The translations under genes were made by a program, and so were the position numbers. A stretch of 64,000 nt of DNA from positions 24,914,213 to 24,978,212 of the forward strand of contig OZ234493.1 in the NCBI GenBank assembly GCA_965153455.1, written 5' to 3'. Numbering within the stretch: position 1 is the first letter of the stretch; each line of letters starts with the position of its first letter. Origin of the DNA: Sphagnum compactum. Its lineage: Eukaryota. Below the pieces are notes generated by a model. It ran no database searches. It was given only the letters and a program-made list of their open reading frames with translations, and had not been told where the DNA came from. Positions 10,455-63,050 of the stretch are shown one piece after another.

Positions 10455-13400
10455 CTATTTCCTCATTTGCGTGAAGAGGGGTGTAGGGGCTGGCGGGGTT
10501 GGGGTGCCACCAAACCCGGAAACTCCCCCACCAGCAAAAGCCCCAAATCCACCACCCCCACTTTGGTTGCCACCAAATGCCTGAAAGCCTCCACCTCCAG
10601 CCACTCCAGCAAAGCCTGCCCATTTTTCACACCATCTGAGTGAGATTGTTTACAAGAGTCAAGGTAAACACCTTTCATGACCTGTTCTTACAGCAAATTA
10701 CAGAGCACACAAGCAATGCCTGTCATCCAGTTGACTTGCAGCAAAAGATGATCACTGTGAAAATGTCAATGTTTCAATTCACTCTCAAGTTTCTGGCCAG
10801 CCATACATAAAAGTGAGTTGATTCTTGGTTACTATGTAACTATATCACTTTTTGTGACAGGTTACCTGATGGAGCACTTCCAAATCCACTAGCAGATGCA
10901 GCTCCTGCAAAACCTCCACCAGTAGCTGCACTTGCAAAACCTCCACTACTAACTGCAGTTCCCACCCCACCTCCAAATGGGCTGGACAGACCAGCCCCCA
11001 TTTGTCTTGTCTGACCAAATGCTCCCAGTGCACTACCCAAGGCTTGCTGCCCAGGTCCAAGCTGTGATCGTTGCCCAAACCCTCCAATCCCAGGTTGCAT
11101 GGGGGTTGCAAACCCTGTACCAGGTGCTGCTGAACTTGTACTGAAAAGATTGCCCCCAGATGGGTTACTTGTAGCAGCTCCAAACCCAATTCCAAATGGA
11201 CTTGCCTGGCCTTGCTGGGGTGACATTCCACTCCCAAAAGTGCTTGCTCCACTTGATTGTGGTGAAGATTGAGCAGAAGGCAAGCTGAAAGCTGCTGGCC
11301 GAAACAGCTGACCCTGCGGTGCAGACAATGGAGGAAACATTGATGAAGGCTGTTGGGGCATAAATGGGGATGAACTTCCAAAGGGGCTGCTCTTTTGGGC
11401 TTCAGCTGGTGATGGAGTTGACCCTAACCCTAAACCCCCAAGGCTTCCAAACCCACTGAGCACTCCTGAACCTGTTGGTTCTTCCTCCATGTCCTCCTCA
11501 TCAAGATCAGAGGGTTGCATTGACACAGATGTGAACAATGGAGCTTGCACTGGAGTGTTTGATGCAGGAAAAACAAACTGTGTTGTGGGTGTTGGGGGAA
11601 GGGATGCTGGAGGTCCTAGATTCTGTACTGCTGCAGGTGATGACAGAGGCCCTTGCTGAGAAGAGACAGGTGTGCTGAGGGATGAAGAATTCTGGCTCAC
11701 TTGAGTGATGGTTGGTGCAGCAGCCACAGAGGCAACCACCTGAGGTTTCTCAGCTGAAAGAGGTGTAGCTGTAGTTGTAGGTTTCACTGGAAAAAAAGCT
11801 GCACTGCTTGAATTGTGAAAACTTCCTGAACTAGTAGCTGGCTTGTTGAACTGCAGTTGCGCAGGAGGGGTGAGGGGCAGAGGAAGCTTCTCATCATTGA
11901 ACTGGCTCTTGGTATCCACTTCCTTAAAGCCTGAAAGTTTGTTGCCAGAAAGATTCAGTGTGAAAGCTGATGGAGCTGCTACGCTCACAGAGGTGGCAAC
12001 CCCTTCTGGAGATGAATACAGAGGCAAACTTCCTCCTCCTCCAAGAGGCATGGGCTTTGAAAAACTACTAGCTTTAGATGGAGCAATCTTGGCTCCCAAG
12101 TTAGACTTATCAAGTTTCCCAGTTCCAAATCCTGGCTTCAGATTGTTGTCCACATTGATCTTTGGGAAGCCTTCATTGCCAGATTTGCCAGTAGCCTGGT
12201 TTCCAACTGTTTGAGTGGATTCTATATTCACAGTGTTAGGTAAACCTGATGAACCAGACACTGTTGAGGAAAAGATCCCCACACTTGATGGCTGTGAGCC
12301 AGAACTGGCTGCTGCTTGGATTGCAAGACTAGCTCCTGGTTTATCTGGAGCTCCACTAACTTTTGGTTCTGATGGTGTGGAAACAAAGGAGAATGAGGAT
12401 GCCAAGGTCGGTGATGCATTGCTTGCCCACTTAAACACACTCTCGGAGTTGGGAATGGAGCTCAAAGGGGTTGAGCTAGTAGTATTTGGGACTGAGGCAG
12501 CAGTAGTGCTTGCAGGTGGTGGCCCAAATCGTGAGGCTGGAAATGTTGGTGCAGTATCTCCAAACGATAGTGGACCCCTTGACACTGCCACAAGAACAGT
12601 CAACAGTGAGGACTTCTGTTGCAATCCTGTGAATCTAAGGCCAACAGAACAACCTCTGCATATAGGGCAAGCAATTCACATACAGGCTTCAAGCATTTGA
12701 GTTGCATTATCAATAAAGAAAAATATCACATACAGACTGTACAAAATAATGAGATTGCAGAATCTCCTGTGTGCTGCCTTGAAGATAATAACTTGATTGT
12801 AAACCTTACCTATCCTCTTGGATTCTGGTCTGCCCTCTTCTGACTGCTGGGTCTGCAATGAAGTGGGCAAGAATGACTTTTGTGAACTAGTGACACCAAC
12901 ATTGAACATATTTCCACTGGTGAAATTTGCCTCGTAATCAGAACTAGATGAGGTAGATGTAGAACTGGAAACCACTGAGCCTGTCTGACTGGAAAGGACC
13001 CGCCTCACATGTCGGGGATGGGCTGCACTTTCGTCAGTGGAGTCCTGGAGAAACAAACCTGGTAAGAATCCTCCCTCACACCTATATATCCTACATCATC
13101 TAGTTGCTGGATTCCGCTGGTAGGTGTTTGTAGAGTGGGCAAATCTTAGAGGGAAAGCTCTACTCTATGGGTGCTAAATTAGTGTGCTGCCGGATTTCAA
13201 ATGCAGTATGTGTTATAGAGTAGGTGGATGATAAAAGGGAAGAACTTGAGCAAAAAACAATAAAATAATAAAACTAGCAGTATGAACAAAAGTGACAGTC
13301 TCTCTCACTTGTTCAGGGACCGTCAACAGTAACAGGTATGATAGCAACATATCTACCATAACTTACCCACTGACTTTGTCAGCTCCCCATATGAGTATAG

Positions 13401-52310: not shown

Positions 52311-55300
52311 CTATGACTTGAAAGTGCTCTTCCACTGCTTGGAGAGTCTTGATAAGTTTTTCCTCACAGATTCTGGCATGTTACATCCACTTATTGAGAT
52401 CTCAACTGGTTCTGGTAGAACACCAGAATTCTCAGCCTTGTTTGTCACAGCTGAGTCCACTGACTCCTTGATCTGTTCCAAGGGTATCATCTGCAGGCCC
52501 AAGCACAATTGTTGTTTTTTGCCCATCAGCTCATGAACTTTCCTTCTGAAATCGCATGGTTAAAAACCCAAACTCCTAAGACTCTATTTCCCCAACTCAT
52601 CATGGAGGTCCTTATCTTTCCTTTCTTCTTGTACAGCAGCCCAGACATGGTGCCATTGCCAATAATTGCAAGGCCTTAAGTTGGTTAAAAAGAATGGCAG
52701 ATATGTCTGTCTTCATTATTAATCTTCACCTAAATAGCAGGCAATCCAAAAGTGATTGCAAGACAAAACAAAAATAGAAGAGGCTCAATCCACTAACCAG
52801 AGTTTGCAAGTGAGCGCAATTGGTGAAGAGCATGCGACGCAGTAAGGGAGAGTAAAGGAAGACTTCAACCAAGTTCTTGCACCCACATGCCTCCACCACC
52901 TTCAACACCCGAGAGTATGCATTCAGCCTGCATTTACATATCCGAATTCCACCCCACACTTATTCCAGTAACTACAGATAGACACAAGAAGATTGTTAAC
53001 TCCCTGCTAGAGTATCCAGCTAACAGCACAATGTCTGTTATGTCTAACAATGCCAAATGTAATCAATACATTACACAGTCTGCAAAAATCACTGGCATAT
53101 TCAGCCAATGTTGTGCTGTATTTAAGACATGAGTAGAGAGAAGAGAAGACTGACCTTCTGAGGGATGAGCAGCCAGAAACTTCCAGATGCAATAGAGAAG
53201 CTTGTGGAATGTGAATTCTTTCCAGTCGTTCACAACCTCCACATCGAAGGTCCTGAAGGCCAGTGGCCAACTCCAGGATATTTGAAAAAGCAGATTGTGT
53301 AAATGACCGGCACCCTGTTACATTCAGATTCTTCACAGTACTACAACTGAACCTCCCCAATGTCTCCAAGTTGTCTGGAAAACACATCACCACACAAGAC
53401 CAGAGAATCTGAGACTTTGAGATTGCTGCTATTGGTGCTGACCTGAAAGAAAATATGAGACACTGTATTCATTCTACAGGACAAAAGAAAACCCCAGGGC
53501 AAATAGGTTGGATGGAAAAACTACAGTTTCAACTGAGCAACCATGCATACCTCACAAACTACTTATCAGATCAAACAATAATTAAAGTCTGGACCACAAT
53601 AAGATCTTGCCTACTAGTACAGTAATCCTCACCATCTTGCCATCAGGGTTCATCATTGCTACCCACAGTCGAGGTGATCAATTGACCTTCTATGGTCTGG
53701 ACAGATCTCAGGAGAGAACCTTTCACAAGAAGAAACAGACTTCTCTGTGGTGTGGCTAAGAGCAGTTGGTCATACCGCAAAGAGAGAGATTGAGAGAAAC
53801 AAGAGCAGGACACTTGAGGTGAATGCGGGTAAGCTTCTTGCAGTTTGACAAGTTCAGGCTTTGCAAATGCGGCCCCACCAGATGCAAGTCTTCAAGCTGG
53901 AGAAACAGTTGCAATAAGTCAGCCTCTCTGTGTTTGGTGGACTGGAGAGAGGGTATAAAGGCAAGCATCCTTTGCAGGCAATGGAAACAGCTCTGCTGTG
54001 TTGCAAAGTCAAGATCAGCTTCTCCTCAAAAGGGCAATCCTGAATGGAAAGTGAGAATATGTCTACAAACACGAGCAACTCGTCAAGGGATTTGAAGCAA
54101 TCAGGGAACACAACCAAGCTGACCTTTGGACATGCTGCGAGGTTAAGTTGTTGAAGGTTGCCTTCACGAGAAAGTTGCAATACCAAGCGGCTGATGTTAG
54201 GTAACTGCGTTGCTGTCAAGATTGCCAATTTTGATATTGGTGGAAGTTGCAGTCCATTGGTTGTCACTCCAATGCACCGAGAGATATCCAGAGAGAAGAG
54301 AGATGACCTTGATGCACCCCGTAGTAATGCCTGCAACCACAGAAATGTGACTCAGAATGAAAAGATACACTTGGTGAGTTAAACAGCAATTATTCAGCTA
54401 GAAGCTTGTTGCTAAACGTGTTGTATTGTCTATCATGAGGACTGAAAAGAGGGGAAGGTGACAAGCCATCAGTAGATCAAACTAACACATGTGAATGCTA
54501 CAGAAAAATAATAGCAATATATGCATGTGAATATTCAGCAGAGAAACAATGTTGGCAACTACAAAGTCATATATATGAGACTGCAGAGAAACCAAAAAAC
54601 TACCATTGCATGAATGAGTGGCATCATAACTTTATGAGTGTCTCTCACAAAGTATCAGACAAATCTCATCAAGTCTCTAACAATCACCTTCATCAGATAG
54701 CAGTCACTACCTGCCATTCCTCCCCATTGATTTCATCAGATCCCAAAAGTGGGTGTAGATAGGTGAACAACAATCTGCTCAAATTTATGGGCAAAAACAA
54801 TTACAAAAAACCTGTGTCCTGAGTCTCTTGTATTTCTGGAAGCAATGATGGAAGACCCAGTCATGATGTTGGCTAGCAGTCAACCGACATAAAATAGTGC
54901 CTTAGCTTTGCACTAGATCCTTTCAACCAGGTTTACTTCCATAGCAGAGAAAATGTGCGAAAAACTAACCAGGGATATAATAGAACTAATAGAAACAAGG
55001 GAAGAATCATACACAGCTCCACGAACCCTAACCACAGATAGCCAGGGCTTGTGGAACCCACTGATAAGACTTGTGCTTGCTAAGCACTCAGGTTGAATGG
55101 AGCCAGAGGAGATTGAGGAACAAGAAGGTGGAAGAAGAGAAGCCCACAGAATTGCAGTACTTCACAAGGGCTTACTCCTGTAGTGAGGCTCACCTTGATA
55201 GCAATCTTGAGCTTTCCAAATTCCTCTAAGAAACTATTCACACAAGCTTTGACTTACTCTGCATAATTTGCTGAGAATTGCACCTGAGCAAAGCTGGGAT

Positions 55301-58300
55301 TTTAGATTCAGCCTCAAAACTCTTAACAAAGTAAAGGCTCAGGGATGAGGTCTTCTGATGCTTTTGGAAGGGCCTTCCTTTGACTGTTTTAACCCTTGGT
55401 TCAAGCCTGAAAAGAGTACCAGAGAAGAGGAGAGAGAATGAGAGACAAGGAGACACCTGCACGCCTTTGTCAGAAATCTGACTGCAACCAGCAACACAGA
55501 TAAGTCTTAAACCTGGAGGCTCCATCTCCAAACACCTGTCCCCAGTGGAAGTACTTTGAGCTGACCCAGGAGTCTCTGGATTATTATACTCCAGTGATGT
55601 TGGTGAAGTATCTCTAAGCTTGCCATTCTTCATCACTGCACCAATTTGTGAAGCACGGAATCCAGTTGGCAAGCGTGTTGAACCTAGCAGAGATCTAATT
55701 GCATTCTCACCATGTCTATGCTCAGAACTGATCCTTGGAGAGAGATTACTGTCACTGAGCAGCTTGGGTGTTCTGTCAGGATTGTTGGAGATCATGAAAA
55801 TGGCAACATCAGTCTGGGTGGTACTGAAGGCTTCTGCTGGCATGTCTGATATTTCAAGCCTCTGGTCAATAACTTGTGTGGCACCCCCAACTCGAATGGC
55901 TTTTGAATCTTTGAAATCACTCATCAAAGCATTGTAATCCTTCAAGTTGTTGGCTGGGGAGCCATGAACATAAACATTTTGCCGAGTGGCAAGCTTTTTG
56001 TTGCCTTGGGACAAAACATTGAAGTTGTAGTAATCAATCCCAGTTGAACCAGACTGCACTACCACAGGTGCCTTGCTAGCAGTGGGAGAATCAAGATGGA
56101 AGTCTGTTGACAGGCTTGGGCTGGCTTGTCTCACAATATCTGTTCTGTGTGCAGAGTTCATTTGCAGGACATCCATCAACTGAGGAAGATCATGGTTTGA
56201 GTTATCAATCTCGTCCAGGACATAGCGCCTATACCTCTCACTCCATTTGTCCTTGTGTATGCCCCCTGGCAGTGATTCATCCAAAACCTCGACAATTCTG
56301 CTTTTGCCTGCTACAGAGCTACCGTTAGAACACAGAGGTAAATCACCCTGACTACTACCAATCCCAGGGCAGCTAGTTGGAGAAGGGTTTGACTCAGGCA
56401 CTACAACACCTGTCCAATCTATTCTGGGTAGGGAAAATGCTGCACTACTTTGTGACCCATTTGCTACATCTAGATATTCATTTTTTCTGTCTGTTTCAAG
56501 GGTGTCAGTGCTTGGTGGGTAAGATCTATCATCAGAAACAAGTGCATTTGCTGCAGCCTGAGCATAACTTCTTGAAGGCATACTGCTCTGAAGAGGTGAA
56601 CTCTGTTTCTCTAGCCTGAAATGGTGCTCGGTGTTTCCAAGCAAAGTTCCTGTATCACTATTGGAGATGTTAGTTTCACCTTGAAGAGAACAAGGAGATG
56701 GGGATGCTAGTGCTGCCCAAAGCCTTGTCTCTGACATGCTTGGGTTCCTGTTTTCAACTTTTGTGCGAGTGCTATATAAGGCCTTTGGCTTAGGCTGTGG
56801 GCTCAGTTCAGGCCAGGAACAAACAGAACTGTTTTCAAGATTCTGATTGTCTTGATCTTCTGGATTTTCAGCAATAGCAAGCTCTTCATCTTCATCAGTT
56901 GGAGCAACAGCACCTGCCACAGCTTGTTCATTAGGAGCCTCTCTGGTCTGTCGATAACGAGAGAGGGTGATCAAGCCAGCATCTGAGATGCCATGACAGT
57001 TTGCCAAATTGACATCCTCCAGCTGCAAGAACACAAAAAACCACGCAAGACGGGTCACAGGCCCATTGCTACAGCTAAACAACTCTCCTTGCATCCTTGT
57101 TCTGAAAAGAATACAAAGAAACTGTTTTGACATAACAAGGTATTCTCTACAACATGACCATTTTCAAAACACCACACCTGCAAGATGAAAACACATGTAC
57201 ATTCAAGTGCAAATTTTGTCTTACCCTGGAATGCAGACTGCAAAGTGCATTCACATCAGCATCCCCCACAAATTCGCAGCTTCTGAAATCGACAGACTCT
57301 AAAGACCGCCGGTGGCTACCTCCTGCTGCTGCTGCAAGGATTGGGATGAACTTCTTCAATTTCCCACCTGAAATCACACAACTAGCAATGAACCAAGAGA
57401 TACCACAAAAAAAAAGTGCAGCACACTGACCAGATTATTGTCTATTTTTCAAAACATTTTGAGGAACAGAATTCAATGTAGCATAATTGACTAGATCAGT
57501 GCAACAACAAACTCATATGATGGTATAAAAGCTTACTGCATCGCCTGAAGCTTAGGGACCTTAGGTTGGTATGAGAAGCCACCTGCACATCAGCCACTAT
57601 CACTCTTCAGTCTCCTCTAAGTTTTGCTGGCATCTCTCCACAAAAGATACAAAAAGAATGGCTGAGTTCAAGTACCAAGCCTTGCAATGCCGATGGTGAC
57701 AGATCTGGTGGCAAGACAAGAAGCTGAACCGTGTTTCTCACATTCTTCACGCCTTCATTGAATTCCTTTGAAACCTGCTAACACCCCAATTTACCAAAGG
57801 GTACCTCAATCCAGGAACTACTACTACCATTAGAGCCTACATACTGTTACTTTCATGCAAGTCCTGAGCAAAGTTGAGAAGACCCATCAACTCCCACAAA
57901 ACGCCTGAATAAAAGAGGGGAAAACAAAGGTCCATTGAAAATCTTTGATGCCCTGAACTTCTAGATTCTCAAGAAGTGAGACACACACTATTCTGATCTG
58001 CATGGCAATATCAGAAGAGGGCAATAAGATTCAGTAAAGACTCGAACAACACCACCTCCCCTGCCATATCCTGTTGAGTGCAGGATTGGATCAAGACTTG
58101 ATGCTATCTGACAGAAGTGGCAATGGGCAATAAGGCAATTGTTATAGTCACGAATCAATCAATCAATTGGGGAGAAGACATGAAGAAAGGGACACGATGA
58201 AATCACCCTAGCAATTCGCGCAGCTTCTTTGTTGGTCAAGCGGGATAGTATCAGAGATTTGCATTCTTCCGGAAGTGCATCCCACATGTTCAACCCATTA

Positions 58301-58999: not shown

Positions 59000-60104
59000 A
59001 GAGAAGAAATCGACAAACATGAGAAATGTTTCGCATAAATTCGAGATGATGAAGAGGACAAGACAGACAGGCTGACTTTGAGCGGCTGGCGATGCAAGGC
59101 AGAAGCAATTTCAGCTTCACACTTGGAAGGATTCTTGACACAGTCGACATTTGAGAAAAGCAAGCACGCACGCACGCACGCGAACAACCGGGAGGGACAG
59201 AATAGGCGGCACTTACACCACAGATCTTGACGCTGCTTGCTTGCTGCCGAAGTTGCTGAAGTTTGTCTCCGCAATTGTGAAGAAGAAAACACGATTTGAT
59301 GATGTGCATGCATGCGTCTAGGAGAAGGCTATTGTGGAACGCTCGCCAGAGTACAGGCTCTCCGAGGTCGGTCGGTCGGTCGTGGAAATGGCGGAGAGAA
59401 GAAGAGGATGTAAACGGTGCTTGGTGCAGGAAACCCTGGGAATCTGCGCCCGTTTCCACTACTGCCTACGCCTGGCACCATCAACAACGACCGATAATCA
59501 TCTTCCCCAACAACAAACAAACAAACAAACAACACGCGCTTTCCTTCCTTCCTTCCTTCCTTTTCACATACTTTCTTTTGTTTCTGCGACCAGCCAGAAG
59601 AAGCTTCAGCCCTAGAGTGAGAGAGAGAGATCCGCGACACAACAGAAGACTCGGCGGAGACGGAAAACAAGCTTCTCCATCGTCACAGAAAACGTGCGAC
59701 AAATCTTTTCTCTCTCTGTGTGCAGCATCCCGCCACGACGACGACGCGCAATCACAAGTGCTGATGAGATCCTCCTGTCTTGCTATTATTGAAGCATTCG
59801 GATCGCATTCTTGTGTCCAGTTTTGTCTCTTGCGCGCGGCGGCAAGCAAGCAAGCAAGCTCTCTTCCGGTTGTGTCGGAATTCCTGAGATTGGCAATCTG
59901 CATTCGTTGCCATGCTTAGATACTTCATGAGGCAGCGAGCTGATTCTCGTTCGCCGTGCGATTTCTCTTCGGTCTCGTTTGTGTGTGTGTGTGTTTTGGA
60001 GCTCGTCTCTCTTCTAGTGCGCGAATTTGTCAATCGAGCGAGGAGTGGAGGGAGGAGGAGAAGGAGCTGTGGTTTCTTCTTCTTCGGGAAACCTTTTGTT
60101 TATC
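59000..60104. promoter_or_regulatory. CpG-rich, microsatellite-rich region between the divergent F-box/LRR and PPR genes (putative bidirectional promoter and 5'UTRs)
   Basis: Genes are head to head (ATGs at 58314 minus and 60105 plus). High CpG density, with (GCAC)n, (CAAA)n, (TTCC)n, (GA)n and (GT)n runs. Confidence 0.55.
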
Positions 60105-62340
60105 ATGGCGATGCGAGAATTCGCCCCTACGGCAGGACGCTTGAGCATTCGCTTCTCAGGTAAGAACAAGAAGAAGGAGAAGGATAATCGATTTCCCTCG
60201 GTAGCAAGCCTCCAATCAAGTTCTCTGTGCAATGCAATTCTGTGCATTGCGGTATTGAGGTTGTATCAGTAATGTTTTCTCACCAACAGTTTCCCTGTTT
60301 CCGTGCTCCTTGGTTCGTGACAGGCAACAACAGCAGCAGCAGAAGGAGAAAGACTGTGGAGCAACTGTGGCGGGAGTTCTTCTCAGATCCTTCACAATGG
60401 TGGGATCATAGATCGGAGAAGGTAAGAGGAAACAAAACCCTAAACGGTCATTTGCATCTCTCTACATTTTGTTCTTGCTCATGATGAATGCGGGCACTGC
60501 ACTGCACTGCGTGCACACATGGTTAGGGTATATGAGATGATGATAATCCAGTAGCAGCAGAATTTCTCCTCTCTGTTTCTAGAGGAATGCAAGATATCCG
60601 GATTTCAAGCACAAGACAACAGAGAACAAGGTGCTGTGGCTCGACGACAACTTGAACAATCCTGCATGGGTGCAAGTGGAGCTTGCAGCAATGGCACCAG
60701 GAAGTGTACAAGCAAGCAATTTCTCATTCAACCTAAAGCTTGCCAAGTATGTGAAGGCTGGGAGACATGCAGAGACATTAAGGCTGTTTCAACAACTGCA
60801 ACAAGAACAAGGCATGATTCCCGACAGGTTCAGTTTTGTTCCAGTACTCAATGCATGTGCTGGCTTACGAATGCTTCTGCACGGCAGATGCATCCATGTG
60901 CAGATCATGCAAAGCGGGTGTGAATCAGATGTCTACATTTGTAATAGCCTTGTTGATATGTATGCTAAATGCGGGAGCATGGAGGATGCTGAGAGAGTCT
61001 TTGACAAGATGGGTAGTCGACGTGGTTCTGTTGCTTGGAATGCACTGATTTTAGGACATGTGAAATGTGGGCAAGCAGACAAGGCATTAGCATTGTGTGA
61101 ACAAATGCAACAGGAAGGTGTGGCACTGGATGCCATCACTTTTGTTGGCATTTTGAATGCGTGTGCCAGAGTTGCAGCTCTTGAGAAGGGCAGGTGTGCT
61201 CATGCTCAGATCATTGAGAATGGCTTTGAATCAAATGTATTTGTTGGTAGTAGCCTTGTTGATATGTATGCTAAGTGTGGAAGCCTGGAAGAAGCGCAAA
61301 GAGTGTTTGACAGCATGCCCATCCACAATGTAGTTTCATGGAATGCTATGATTTTGGGACATGTGAAAAATGGACATGGGCGGAAGGCATTGGAAATGTA
61401 TCAGCTAATGCAACTGGAAGGGCTGAAGCCAAGCTCTGTCACCTTTGCAGCAGTGCTCAATGCATGTGCTAGTGTAAAGGTGGCAGTTGAGGAAGGCAGG
61501 TACATTCATGAACAGGCTATCCTACATGGCTGTGAGTCTGATCCTGTCGTGGGTAATTGCCTCATTGACATGTATGCCAAATGTGGGAGTATGGAGGATG
61601 CTTGGAGAGTTTTCAACAGGATGCAGAAACCACACAGTGTCATCTCTTGGAGTGCAATGATTCTGGGATATCTGAAACGTGAGCAAGGGCACAAGGTATT
61701 GGAACTATCTCGGGAAATGCAACGTGAAGGGGTGCAGCCAGACCCTGTCACCTTTGTGGGATTGCTGAATGCATGTGCTACTGTAGTGGCACTTGAAGAA
61801 GGACGGCATTTTCATGAACAGATTATTGATCTTGGGTGTGAGTCTGATCACTTTGTGGCTAGTAGCCTTGTTGATATGTATGCCAAATGCGGGAGCATAT
61901 ATGAAGCACAAATGGTGTTCAACAGGATGTCCTCACCCAATGTGGTGTCTTGGACTGTCATGCTTCAAGGATATGCCACACATGGGCTTGCTAAGGAAGC
62001 ACTTGCACATTTCAAACAGATGTGGCAACAAGGTATTGTGATAGATAAGGTCACTTTCATTGCTCTTCTGTCAGCTTGTAGCCATGCAGGTCTGGTCCAT
62101 GAAGGCCTAGACTACTTTGAATCAATGGGTTCACTTTACCGTGTTTCTGCAACCATGGAGCATTACGCCTGTGTGGTTGATCTTCTTGGCCGTGCTGGCC
62201 ATCTGCAGGAGGCAGAGGATTTCATTAATGCAATGTCTTGTGCACCAGATACTTCAGTGTGGACAACATTGCTTGGTGCTTGTAGAATTCATGGTAATGT
62301 GGAGATGGCAGAGCGCATCACTAAAAGAATAGTTTGTTGA
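60105..62340 (+). CDS. PLS-class PPR protein (15 motifs plus truncated E1) with putative organellar transit peptide and an N-terminal OSB/PTAC9-type PDF motif
   Basis: Proposed exons 60105-60159 (less certain), 60270-60421 and 60583-62340. The spliced product reads ...EQLWREFFSDPSQWWDHRSEK|RNARYPDFKHKTTENKVLWLDDNLNNPAWV, then (P-L-S)x4, P2-L2-S2 (FIALLSACSHAGLV, EHYACVVDLLGRAG) and E1 start VWTTLLGACRIHGNVEMAE. TGA ends at 62340. Confidence 0.88.
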
Positions 62341-62570
62341 AAATGCTACAGGCTGCTATCCAGCATCTATACTGTGGCTGGCAAGTGGGATTGCAGTGTA
62401 CAATGGTCAAGAACGGACTGGAAAGGAGCATGCAAAGACAGCTGGAGTGAGTAATGAGGTTTGTTGCATTCATCTGTAGTGGACCAGAAAGGCAATCATT
62501 ATTTCAAATGATTGAAATCCAGGCAGAACTAGAGAGATTGTCTGGGATGATGAATGATGCTGAGTATGTG
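62341..62570 (+). pseudogene. Frameshifted remnant of the PPR E1/E2/E+ extension downstream of the stop codon
   Basis: Fragments in shifting frames: ENATG, LLSSIYTVAGKWD, VSNEV, QMIEIQAELERLSGMMNDAEYV. These are typical E2/E+ motifs. No DYW HSE/CxxC motif follows. Confidence 0.8.
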
Positions 62571-62880
62571 TGCTAGGTGGGTTGAAAATTACAAATTCCT
62601 ACTGCCGATCCTTCCATTTGAGACACCTAAAATCCTGCAGAATACCTGGGTACAGTCCTTTATGGATGAGCTGTGGTCTGCTATAAAATAGTGCTTTGGT
62701 TCCCCACAACTTGCAAATCCCTCAAAATTGGCATTTCCTGCAAGCCGAATTCTGCAATTCAAGAAGCCTGAAAAGTGGCAGAATCTGCCCCTCAATATCC
62801 TTTGCCTATATGAGATGGGCTCCAAGTAGGTCCATTCCTGCTTTCTCAACACCAACAGCTTGGCCTAGTAACAGCTTCAG

Positions 62881-63050
62881 TGGCATCTCTCTGGTCTTGG
62901 TTCACAAGGTGTAATGCTCTGTTGGCATCTCTCTGTCTGTGGTTCACAAGGTGTTATGCTCCATTGGCATATGTGCACCCTCAGTTCACAAGGTGTAATG
63001 CTCTGCTAGCATCTCTCCACCCTCGGTTCACAAGGTGTAATGCTTTGCTG
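62881..63050. repeat. Tandem repeat, 4 x 42 bp
   Basis: TGGCATCTCTC(variable)GTTCACAAGGTGTAATGCTCTG unit starting at 62881, ~62923, ~62965 and ~63007. Confidence 0.9.

Follow-up and report, generated by a model that had tools for sequence, protein, structure and literature searches.

A truncated PLS-class PPR gene of Sphagnum compactum carries an OSB-type PDF motif found in moss, lycophyte, and fern relatives

Organellar single-stranded DNA-binding (OSB) proteins combine an N-terminal SSB-like OB-fold with one to four C-terminal copies of the PDF motif, a segment of ~50 to 60 residues (W..FF..P..WWD.R..K....PDFKHK....LW....P.WV) present in OSB1-4/PTAC9. In the available excerpts of three papers, this motif is described as the single-stranded DNA (ssDNA)-binding element of OSBs and as sufficient for binding in OSB1 (PMC6963530, PMC4166229, and PMC6451138). 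Pentatricopeptide repeat (PPR) editing factors of the PLS-E-DYW type, such as Physcomitrium PPR56 (PMC10482289, available in part), are built from PLS triplets with a P2-L2-S2 end. Here we describe a plus-strand PPR gene of Sphagnum compactum in which one such PDF motif precedes a PLS array. The gene lies in a window of 64,000 nucleotides (the whole stretch analyzed; contig OZ234493.1, positions 24,914,213 to 24,978,212), and all coordinates below refer to that window. Whereas OSBs carry an OB-fold ahead of their motifs, the window protein has no OB-fold and a single N-terminal motif followed by PPRs. It shares the triplets and P2-L2-S2 end of PPR56 but, unlike PLS-E-DYW factors, ends inside E1 and has no deaminase.

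A PLS array that likewise lacks a deaminase and has DYW-bearing relatives is known from maize PPR103, for which the accessible portions of two papers report no PDF motif (PMC4872118 and PMC10940495). PPR arrays are also paired with a second nucleic acid-related module in PPR4, which has an RRM, and in SMR, LAGLIDADG, and NYN PPRs. A review of Physcomitrium PPRs lists RRM, LAGLIDADG, SMR, NYN, CBS, and SAP as extra domains, with no N-terminal PDF module among those in its available excerpts (PMC9459714). A 2026 kingdom-wide survey of editing factors, in the part accessible, reports PPR/MORF/RRM/OZ fusions only (PMC13386178). Term searches of these excerpts found no mention of PDF, OSB, or ssDNA-binding motifs in either source, nor of Sphagnum in the survey. 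No description of a PDF+PPR fusion was found in the literature searched, whose coverage stopped short of the founding OSB paper (Zaegel et al. 2006) and of supplements. The PDF-PPR architecture is real, widespread, and apparently undescribed. The window locus is an unremarkable member of the family, degenerate and truncated, in which an intron is retained. Domain surveys miss the PDF module because they use catalogued domains and Pfam has no PDF model; an intron also splits the motif in many genes.

The explanation that we favor, and consider probable, is that the locus is a three-coding-exon nuclear gene, a truncated paralogue within a large, old PDF-PPR family, whose product is most likely an organellar sequence-specific RNA binder and not an autonomous editing enzyme. 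Such a protein would hold in one chain a short presequence, a single PDF motif of the OSB type (interrupted in the gene by a phase-0 intron), and a PLS array of 15 motifs. The plus-strand frame reads ...LWREFFSDPSQWWDHRSEK up to 60421, where exon 2 ends, and resumes in phase 0 in a 585-codon open reading frame (ORF) at 60583-62340 that opens RNARYPDFKHKTTENKVLWLDD..NPAWV. Between them, intron 2 has the donor AAG/GTAAGA (GT at 60422-60423) and the acceptor TTTCTAG/AGG (AG at 60581-60582) with a pyrimidine tract. Joined from the ATG at 60105, exons 1, 2, and 3 form a single frame divisible by 3 in length with one terminal stop. An earlier, sequence-only reading of this DNA had proposed the same GT(60422)-AG(60581-60582) sites with in-frame continuation, and a PDF motif in frame ahead of a PLS array; both are indeed present in the sequence. 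This WWD/PDFK pair is the only one in the window, and no second PPR gene or PDF motif occurs there.

The assignment of the segment to OSB/PTAC9-type PDF motifs, also made in that reading, was borne out in both search directions. Against a hidden Markov model (HMM) built only from OSB-type proteins (13 motifs of six SSB-domain proteins, two of which NCBI names OSB1 and OSB3), the product joined in silico scored 75.4 bits (E 1.3e-25 in a single comparison), with residues 21-88 aligning gap-free across the exon joint. In the combined alignment (A2), all 14 invariant columns are retained by the window motif. A second alignment (A1), of 20 motif segments from moss and lycophyte PPR relatives, has 17 invariant columns. 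Its profile, searched against 1.84 billion representative proteins, matched 1361 proteins at E<=1e-3, 605 at <=1e-10, and 70 at <=1e-30. PPR arrays are present in 12 of the 150 best matches, and the remainder carry 1 to 13 motif copies. The non-PPR matches are mostly multicopy proteins, some of them OSB-like (~200 N-terminal residues, then two to four motifs), together with short single-motif fragments. The PPR-borne profile retrieved NCBI-named OSB1 and OSB3 at E 1e-30 to 1e-33, namely P0190 ("protein OSB1, mitochondrial-like"; Populus) and P0185 ("organellar single-stranded DNA binding protein 3"; Euphorbia).

Among 10 proteins scanned for SSB (PF00436), the domain exceeded the Pfam cutoff in P0163, P0165, P0172, and P0134 and fell below it in P0190, P0185, P0121, and P0148. 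The same scan, which detects PF00436 in OSB-type proteins, found none in the ORF or its upstream frame, and only ~20 residues precede the motif in the joined product. Pfam has no family in frame upstream of the ORF, and three full PDF motifs matched 0 Pfam families at E<=10. By sequence comparison, then, the segment is identified as a true OSB-type PDF motif.

Several other PDF-bearing proteins drew our attention. The cluster of P0123, named Effrenium voratum (a dinoflagellate), consists almost entirely of PDF motifs (nine copies), which is at odds with the statement in the available part of PMC4166229 that conservation of the motif is confined to green plants. P0121, named Kingdonia uniflora (a basal eudicot), has 13 copies that make up nearly the whole protein. 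In P0157 (named Coptis chinensis), three PDF motifs stand ahead of a kinesin motor domain, and in P0148 (named Striga hermonthica), SSB and three PDF motifs occur in a 1063-residue protein named after another family; either may be a merged gene model or a further fusion. In the listed fragment of P0333, a short protein model (named Sphagnum jensenii, 169 aa), there are two PDF motifs but neither a PPR nor an SSB part.

AlphaFold2 modeled the motif alone with a predicted local distance difference test score (pLDDT) of 84.8 and a predicted template modeling score of 0.73, placing a helix at residues 2-18, strands at 23-25 and 38-40, and a second helix at 57-64. A full-length model of a paralogue (pLDDT 87.6) has the same elements; in it, the 35 residues before the motif are disordered, as expected of a presequence. 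A profile search of PDB sequences with the motif gave 0 matches at E<=10. Fold searches with the motif model gave no usable relative (Foldseek best E, 2.8; VIA-align wide best Z, 3.8 among 48,161 chains), nor did the ESM Atlas with PPR families skipped. The predicted PDF fold therefore offers no mechanistic lead.

The sequence-only reading had held that PLS PPRs normally lack such a domain. In the nearest lineages, the reverse applies. The 120 best relatives of the ORF come mainly from Sphagnum (55 to 63% identical) and the lycophyte Diphasiastrum complanatum (~48%), and 61 of them have an N-terminal PDF match, as the full motif in 38 and as the C-terminal half only in 23. By label, the carriers include 16/22 Sphagnum-named and 14/28 Diphasiastrum-named proteins, and none (0/13) of the Ginkgo, Cryptomeria, Ceratopteris, or Adiantum nelumboides relatives among these 120. 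Some lycophyte PDF-PPRs have two or three tandem motifs, and P0161 of the fern Adiantum capillus-veneris joins two PDF motifs to PPRs. An early word-indexed search with the half motif was too insensitive to reveal this distribution, returning only two 97% relatives among five candidates. The fusion, being common to a moss, a lycophyte, and a fern, is much older than this locus and did not arise here. The window follows the family layout, in which the motif ends ~10 residues before the first P1 within one reading frame.

The editing-type C-terminus is intact elsewhere in the family. A complete DYW domain (1-93/93) and E motifs were found in all five PDF-PPRs scanned (P0035, P0039, P0042, P0049, and P0087), which answers in the affirmative whether paralogues keep an intact E/DYW, and a DYW match is on record for 18/61 PDF-carrying relatives. 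From these sequences, PDF + PLS + E + DYW emerges as a standard arrangement among the editing-type PPRs of these plants.

The position of the intron within the motif is a family trait, because 19/23 half matches start at profile positions 30-34, the site of intron 2 here. In the window, intron 2 sits at family position 30/31 of the motif, after an invariant K. Four JGI-sourced proteins (P0011, P0017, P0053, and P0067) are contiguous across this position and come from either intronless genes or spliced metatranscript contigs. In the Populus OSB1 gene (metagenome locus L001), a single exon encodes both PDF motifs (residues 209-371), and no intron interrupts the position at which the PPR family has one. 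The suggestion that a PPR module was recruited behind OSB-derived exons thus gains no support from intron position; a comparison with one OSB gene is weak and leaves that origin neither supported nor excluded.

The PPR array itself is regular. Pfam reports PPR families only in the ORF (PPR_2, 3e-83; PPR, 9e-66) in 9 to 10 stretches, and the motif layout resolves the 15 PLS motifs that the sequence-only reading had counted, as (P1-L1-S1)x4 + P2-L2-S2 with a period of ~101 residues, followed by 29 residues of E1. For the motif names we assume the Lurin/Cheng nomenclature. The same reading had called the array PLS-E, which was not upheld, as it stops inside E1 and E2/DYW are decayed. In tblastn searches with the C-termini of P0035 and P0039, the same frame matched across the stop at 62338-62340 (E 1e-50). 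Beyond it, an E2 remnant with deletions and two more stops extends to ~62490, and a DYW-start remnant of 22 to 26 residues (62493-62570; 59 to 65% identity) follows in a shifted frame. Nothing of the deaminase core was left downstream of the stop in these searches, and neither E_motif nor PF14432 had a Pfam match in the ORF. The remnant region is transcribed as 3' untranslated region (UTR), at a depth of 12 to 19 out to 62700. P0001 and P0002, 97%-identical proteins from other contigs, share the ...IVC terminus. We conclude from these alignments that the copy probably descends from a PLS-E-DYW factor, gained a stop inside E1, and lost E2 and DYW.

Whether the exons are joined in mature transcripts is the main difficulty for the favored explanation, and several observations weigh against it. 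RNA was placed on 59900-62700 from a stranded polyA run (X24, ~12% read) and three metatranscriptome contig sets, with splice joints listed at >=3 reads. In these four RNA sets, no joint 60421>60583 reached that threshold at a depth of ~6 to 10, so that, provisionally, the transcripts of this locus speak against the junction on which the sequence-only reading had staked the fusion. Sense polyA depth in the pure intron 2 bin was 5.8, versus 6.7 to 9.6 in adjoining bins, and intron 2 coverage amounts to ~60 to 90% of exon depth in polyA RNA. An X10 contig is unspliced across 60371-60971, and an X1 contig begins within intron 2. In intron 2-retaining mRNA, the frame stops at 60482-60484. Among 23 short-protein matches (best, 66% identical), there was no near-identical spliced protein fragment of this gene. 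P0351 ("partial," 284 aa; named Sphagnum compactum), the only public model for the identical gene, begins at the Met following the motif and leaves the motif exons unannotated. Finally, OSB1 and OSB2 favor ssDNA over double-stranded DNA or RNA in the available excerpts of PMC6963530, PMC4166229, and PMC6451138.

Intron 2 is thus mostly retained in the RNA sampled. All seven X24 reads over 60511 show the same variant; the reads therefore derive from this locus in a slightly different genotype and not from paralogues. With such coverage, splicing in as much as about a quarter of the transcripts could escape reporting. The gap-free fit of the motif across the joint is good evidence, at the level of sequence, that the predicted splice sites are those that evolution uses. 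The 60421/60583 splice is plausible and family-typical, though not seen in RNA for this locus.

Retention also argues for an expressed pseudogene, that is, a decaying DYW-factor paralogue in which a retained intron 2 brings a premature stop, the C-terminus is lost, and no functional protein is made. The unseen 60421/60583 joint, the stop inside E1 with decayed E2/DYW, and a public model that is "partial" and pieced together all fit this account, as does a minor aberrant splice that removes 62033-62351. This splice removes the stop codon together with the last part of the array and joins P2 to the decayed E2, which would yield a different short C-terminus. However, the ORF is uninterrupted over its 585 codons and relatives 97% identical to it terminate at the same point, both intron 2 splice sites are canonical, all 14 invariant motif residues are present, and intron 1 is completely spliced (seven X24 reads from five starts and one X10 contig; depth 0 in bin 60182-60275). 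Synonymous changes are also in excess. Relative to the contig of a 98%-identical relative, 60583-61588 has 12 synonymous and 7 nonsynonymous changes, versus ~4:15 under neutrality (binomial p 1e-4 to 3e-3 by assumed synonymous share). With ~217 synonymous and 789 nonsynonymous sites (whole-ORF Nei-Gojobori counts scaled by length), the ratio of nonsynonymous to synonymous rates (dN/dS) is ~0.16 over this segment, and it is ~0.26 among 29 listed coding differences (15:14 synonymous:nonsynonymous); both figures are rough, given few changes and differences that were listed only, and this too counts against the explanation we favor. The pattern suggests that this copy is still under purifying selection, and the synonymous excess would argue for translation of the array. 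We therefore consider a pseudogene unlikely.

Translation of the array might instead begin at Met 60691 (..LAAMAPGS), leaving the PDF exons outside the PPR protein and exons 1 and 2 as a short upstream peptide. The dominance of retained-intron transcripts is compatible with this arrangement, and P0351 begins at that Met. That model, though, is made up of four segments, collinear with the window ORF and 100% identical to it, with three internal PPR-array stretches deleted, and because parts of the array are also removed, it looks like an ab initio annotation artifact. Several AUGs in the retained intron lie upstream of 60691, so that initiation at this later Met is unlikely. Exons 2 and 3 share one phase and, when joined, restore the whole, fully conserved motif, and 38 relatives encode motif and array in one chain. 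A Met-60691 start is accordingly improbable. Least credible, to the point of being very improbable, is a one-off chimera of recent assembly that would anchor a programmable RNA-binding array on R-loops or nucleoid ssDNA, a tethering that the sequence-only reading had put forward with co-transcriptional RNA processing in mind: the architecture is real and PDF motifs bind ssDNA in OSB proteins (PMC6963530, PMC4166229, and PMC6451138, each in part), but the build is neither singular nor recent, being family-wide in moss, lycophyte, and fern, and the family's intron position is uninterrupted in the Populus OSB1 gene.

Table 1. Coordinates of the PDF-PPR locus and its transcript parts within the window
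Feature	Position	Strand	Basis or remark
5' leader, transcribed	59900..60104	+	Sense polyA depth 10-12 from 59900; extends further upstream
Exon 1 coding part, short Arg/Ser-rich presequence	60105..60159	+	ATG + 18 codons + 1 base; end fixed by RNA joint
Intron 1, GT..AG, efficiently spliced	60160..60323	+	RNA joint 60156>60321 (cut +3)
Exon 2; 60329-60421 = N-terminal half of PDF motif (..LWREFFSDPSQWWDHRSEK)	60324..60421	+	Joined-product residues 21-51 = OSB-HMM positions 3-33
Intron 2, 161 nt, phase 0, GTAAGA..TTTCTAG, splits PDF motif	60422..60582	+	Mostly retained in sampled RNA
PDF motif C-terminal half (RNARYPDFKHK..LWL..NPAWV..LAAM)	60583..60693	+	HMM alignment, residues 52-88
PLS-class PPR array, 15 motifs, (P1-L1-S1)x4 + P2-L2-S2	60718..62250	+	Pfam + motif layout
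Shortened E1 motif (29 residues), then TGA at 62338-62340	62251..62340	+	Layout + tblastn; same ...IVC end in P0001, P0002
Decayed E2 remnant to ~62490, then DYW-start remnant 62493-62570	62341..62570	+	tblastn; transcribed as 3' UTR
Minor alternative intron, GT..AG, 319 nt	62033..62351	+	Joint 62030>62350 (cut +2), 3 reads from 2 starts, X24

Transcription of the plus strand spans from before 59900 to past 62700, and record 9 of the X10 contigs carries ~650 more bases upstream of 59901. Elsewhere in the window, (GCAA)n and (GT)n microsatellites occupy 59840-59996, in or near the transcribed 5' leader, and a 42-bp tandem repeat (3.9 copies, 81% matches) lies at 62881-63044, downstream of 59900-62700. 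Two minus-strand open frames, at 10840-12675 (611 codons; Ser/Pro/Gly-rich with many FG pairs) and 55238-57163 (641 codons), were also noted.

Returning to the truncated PDF-PPR paralogue that we favor, its likely mode of action can be sketched. On RNA, PPR arrays are oriented with the N-terminus facing the 5' end; thus, the N-terminal PDF unit (~60 residues; helix, short strands, helix) would sit 5' of the PPR footprint. There, the putative PPR-borne unit may add nonspecific affinity for single-stranded nucleic acid, or a contact with the nucleoid. Because E2 and DYW are gone, this copy cannot deaminate, and the truncated protein would act as a site-recognition factor needing a deaminase in trans or as an RNA stabilizer. 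A plausible parallel in function is maize PPR103, which stabilizes RNA ends in the excerpts of PMC4872118 and PMC10940495. With intron 2 retained, the locus would yield little protein, or yield it conditionally or under regulation.

For the family as a whole, we tentatively raise a broader possibility, that PDF is an overlooked standard N-terminal module of PLS/DYW editing factors in spore-bearing plants and serves as an in-cis clamp on single-stranded nucleic acid. On this view, the module would either grip the RNA on the 5' side of the PPR footprint or anchor the editing factor on ssDNA of the transcribing nucleoid. According to the accessible part of PMC13386178, MORF helper proteins occur in seed plants only, by which Sphagnum, lycophytes, and ferns would be without them.

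PPR editing factors serve as programmable RNA-binding scaffolds whose activity is decided by accessory parts (E, DYW, and MORF partners). Here, a strictly conserved 60-residue module, whose homologue in OSB proteins is their only known ssDNA-binding element, precedes roughly half of the nearest moss and lycophyte PLS/DYW proteins. Its role is directly testable in existing Escherichia coli editing assays. The module would represent a component of the editing apparatus of early-diverging land plants that has gone unrecognized, and if it does act as a clamp, their editing would be linked to the machinery that maintains the organellar genome.

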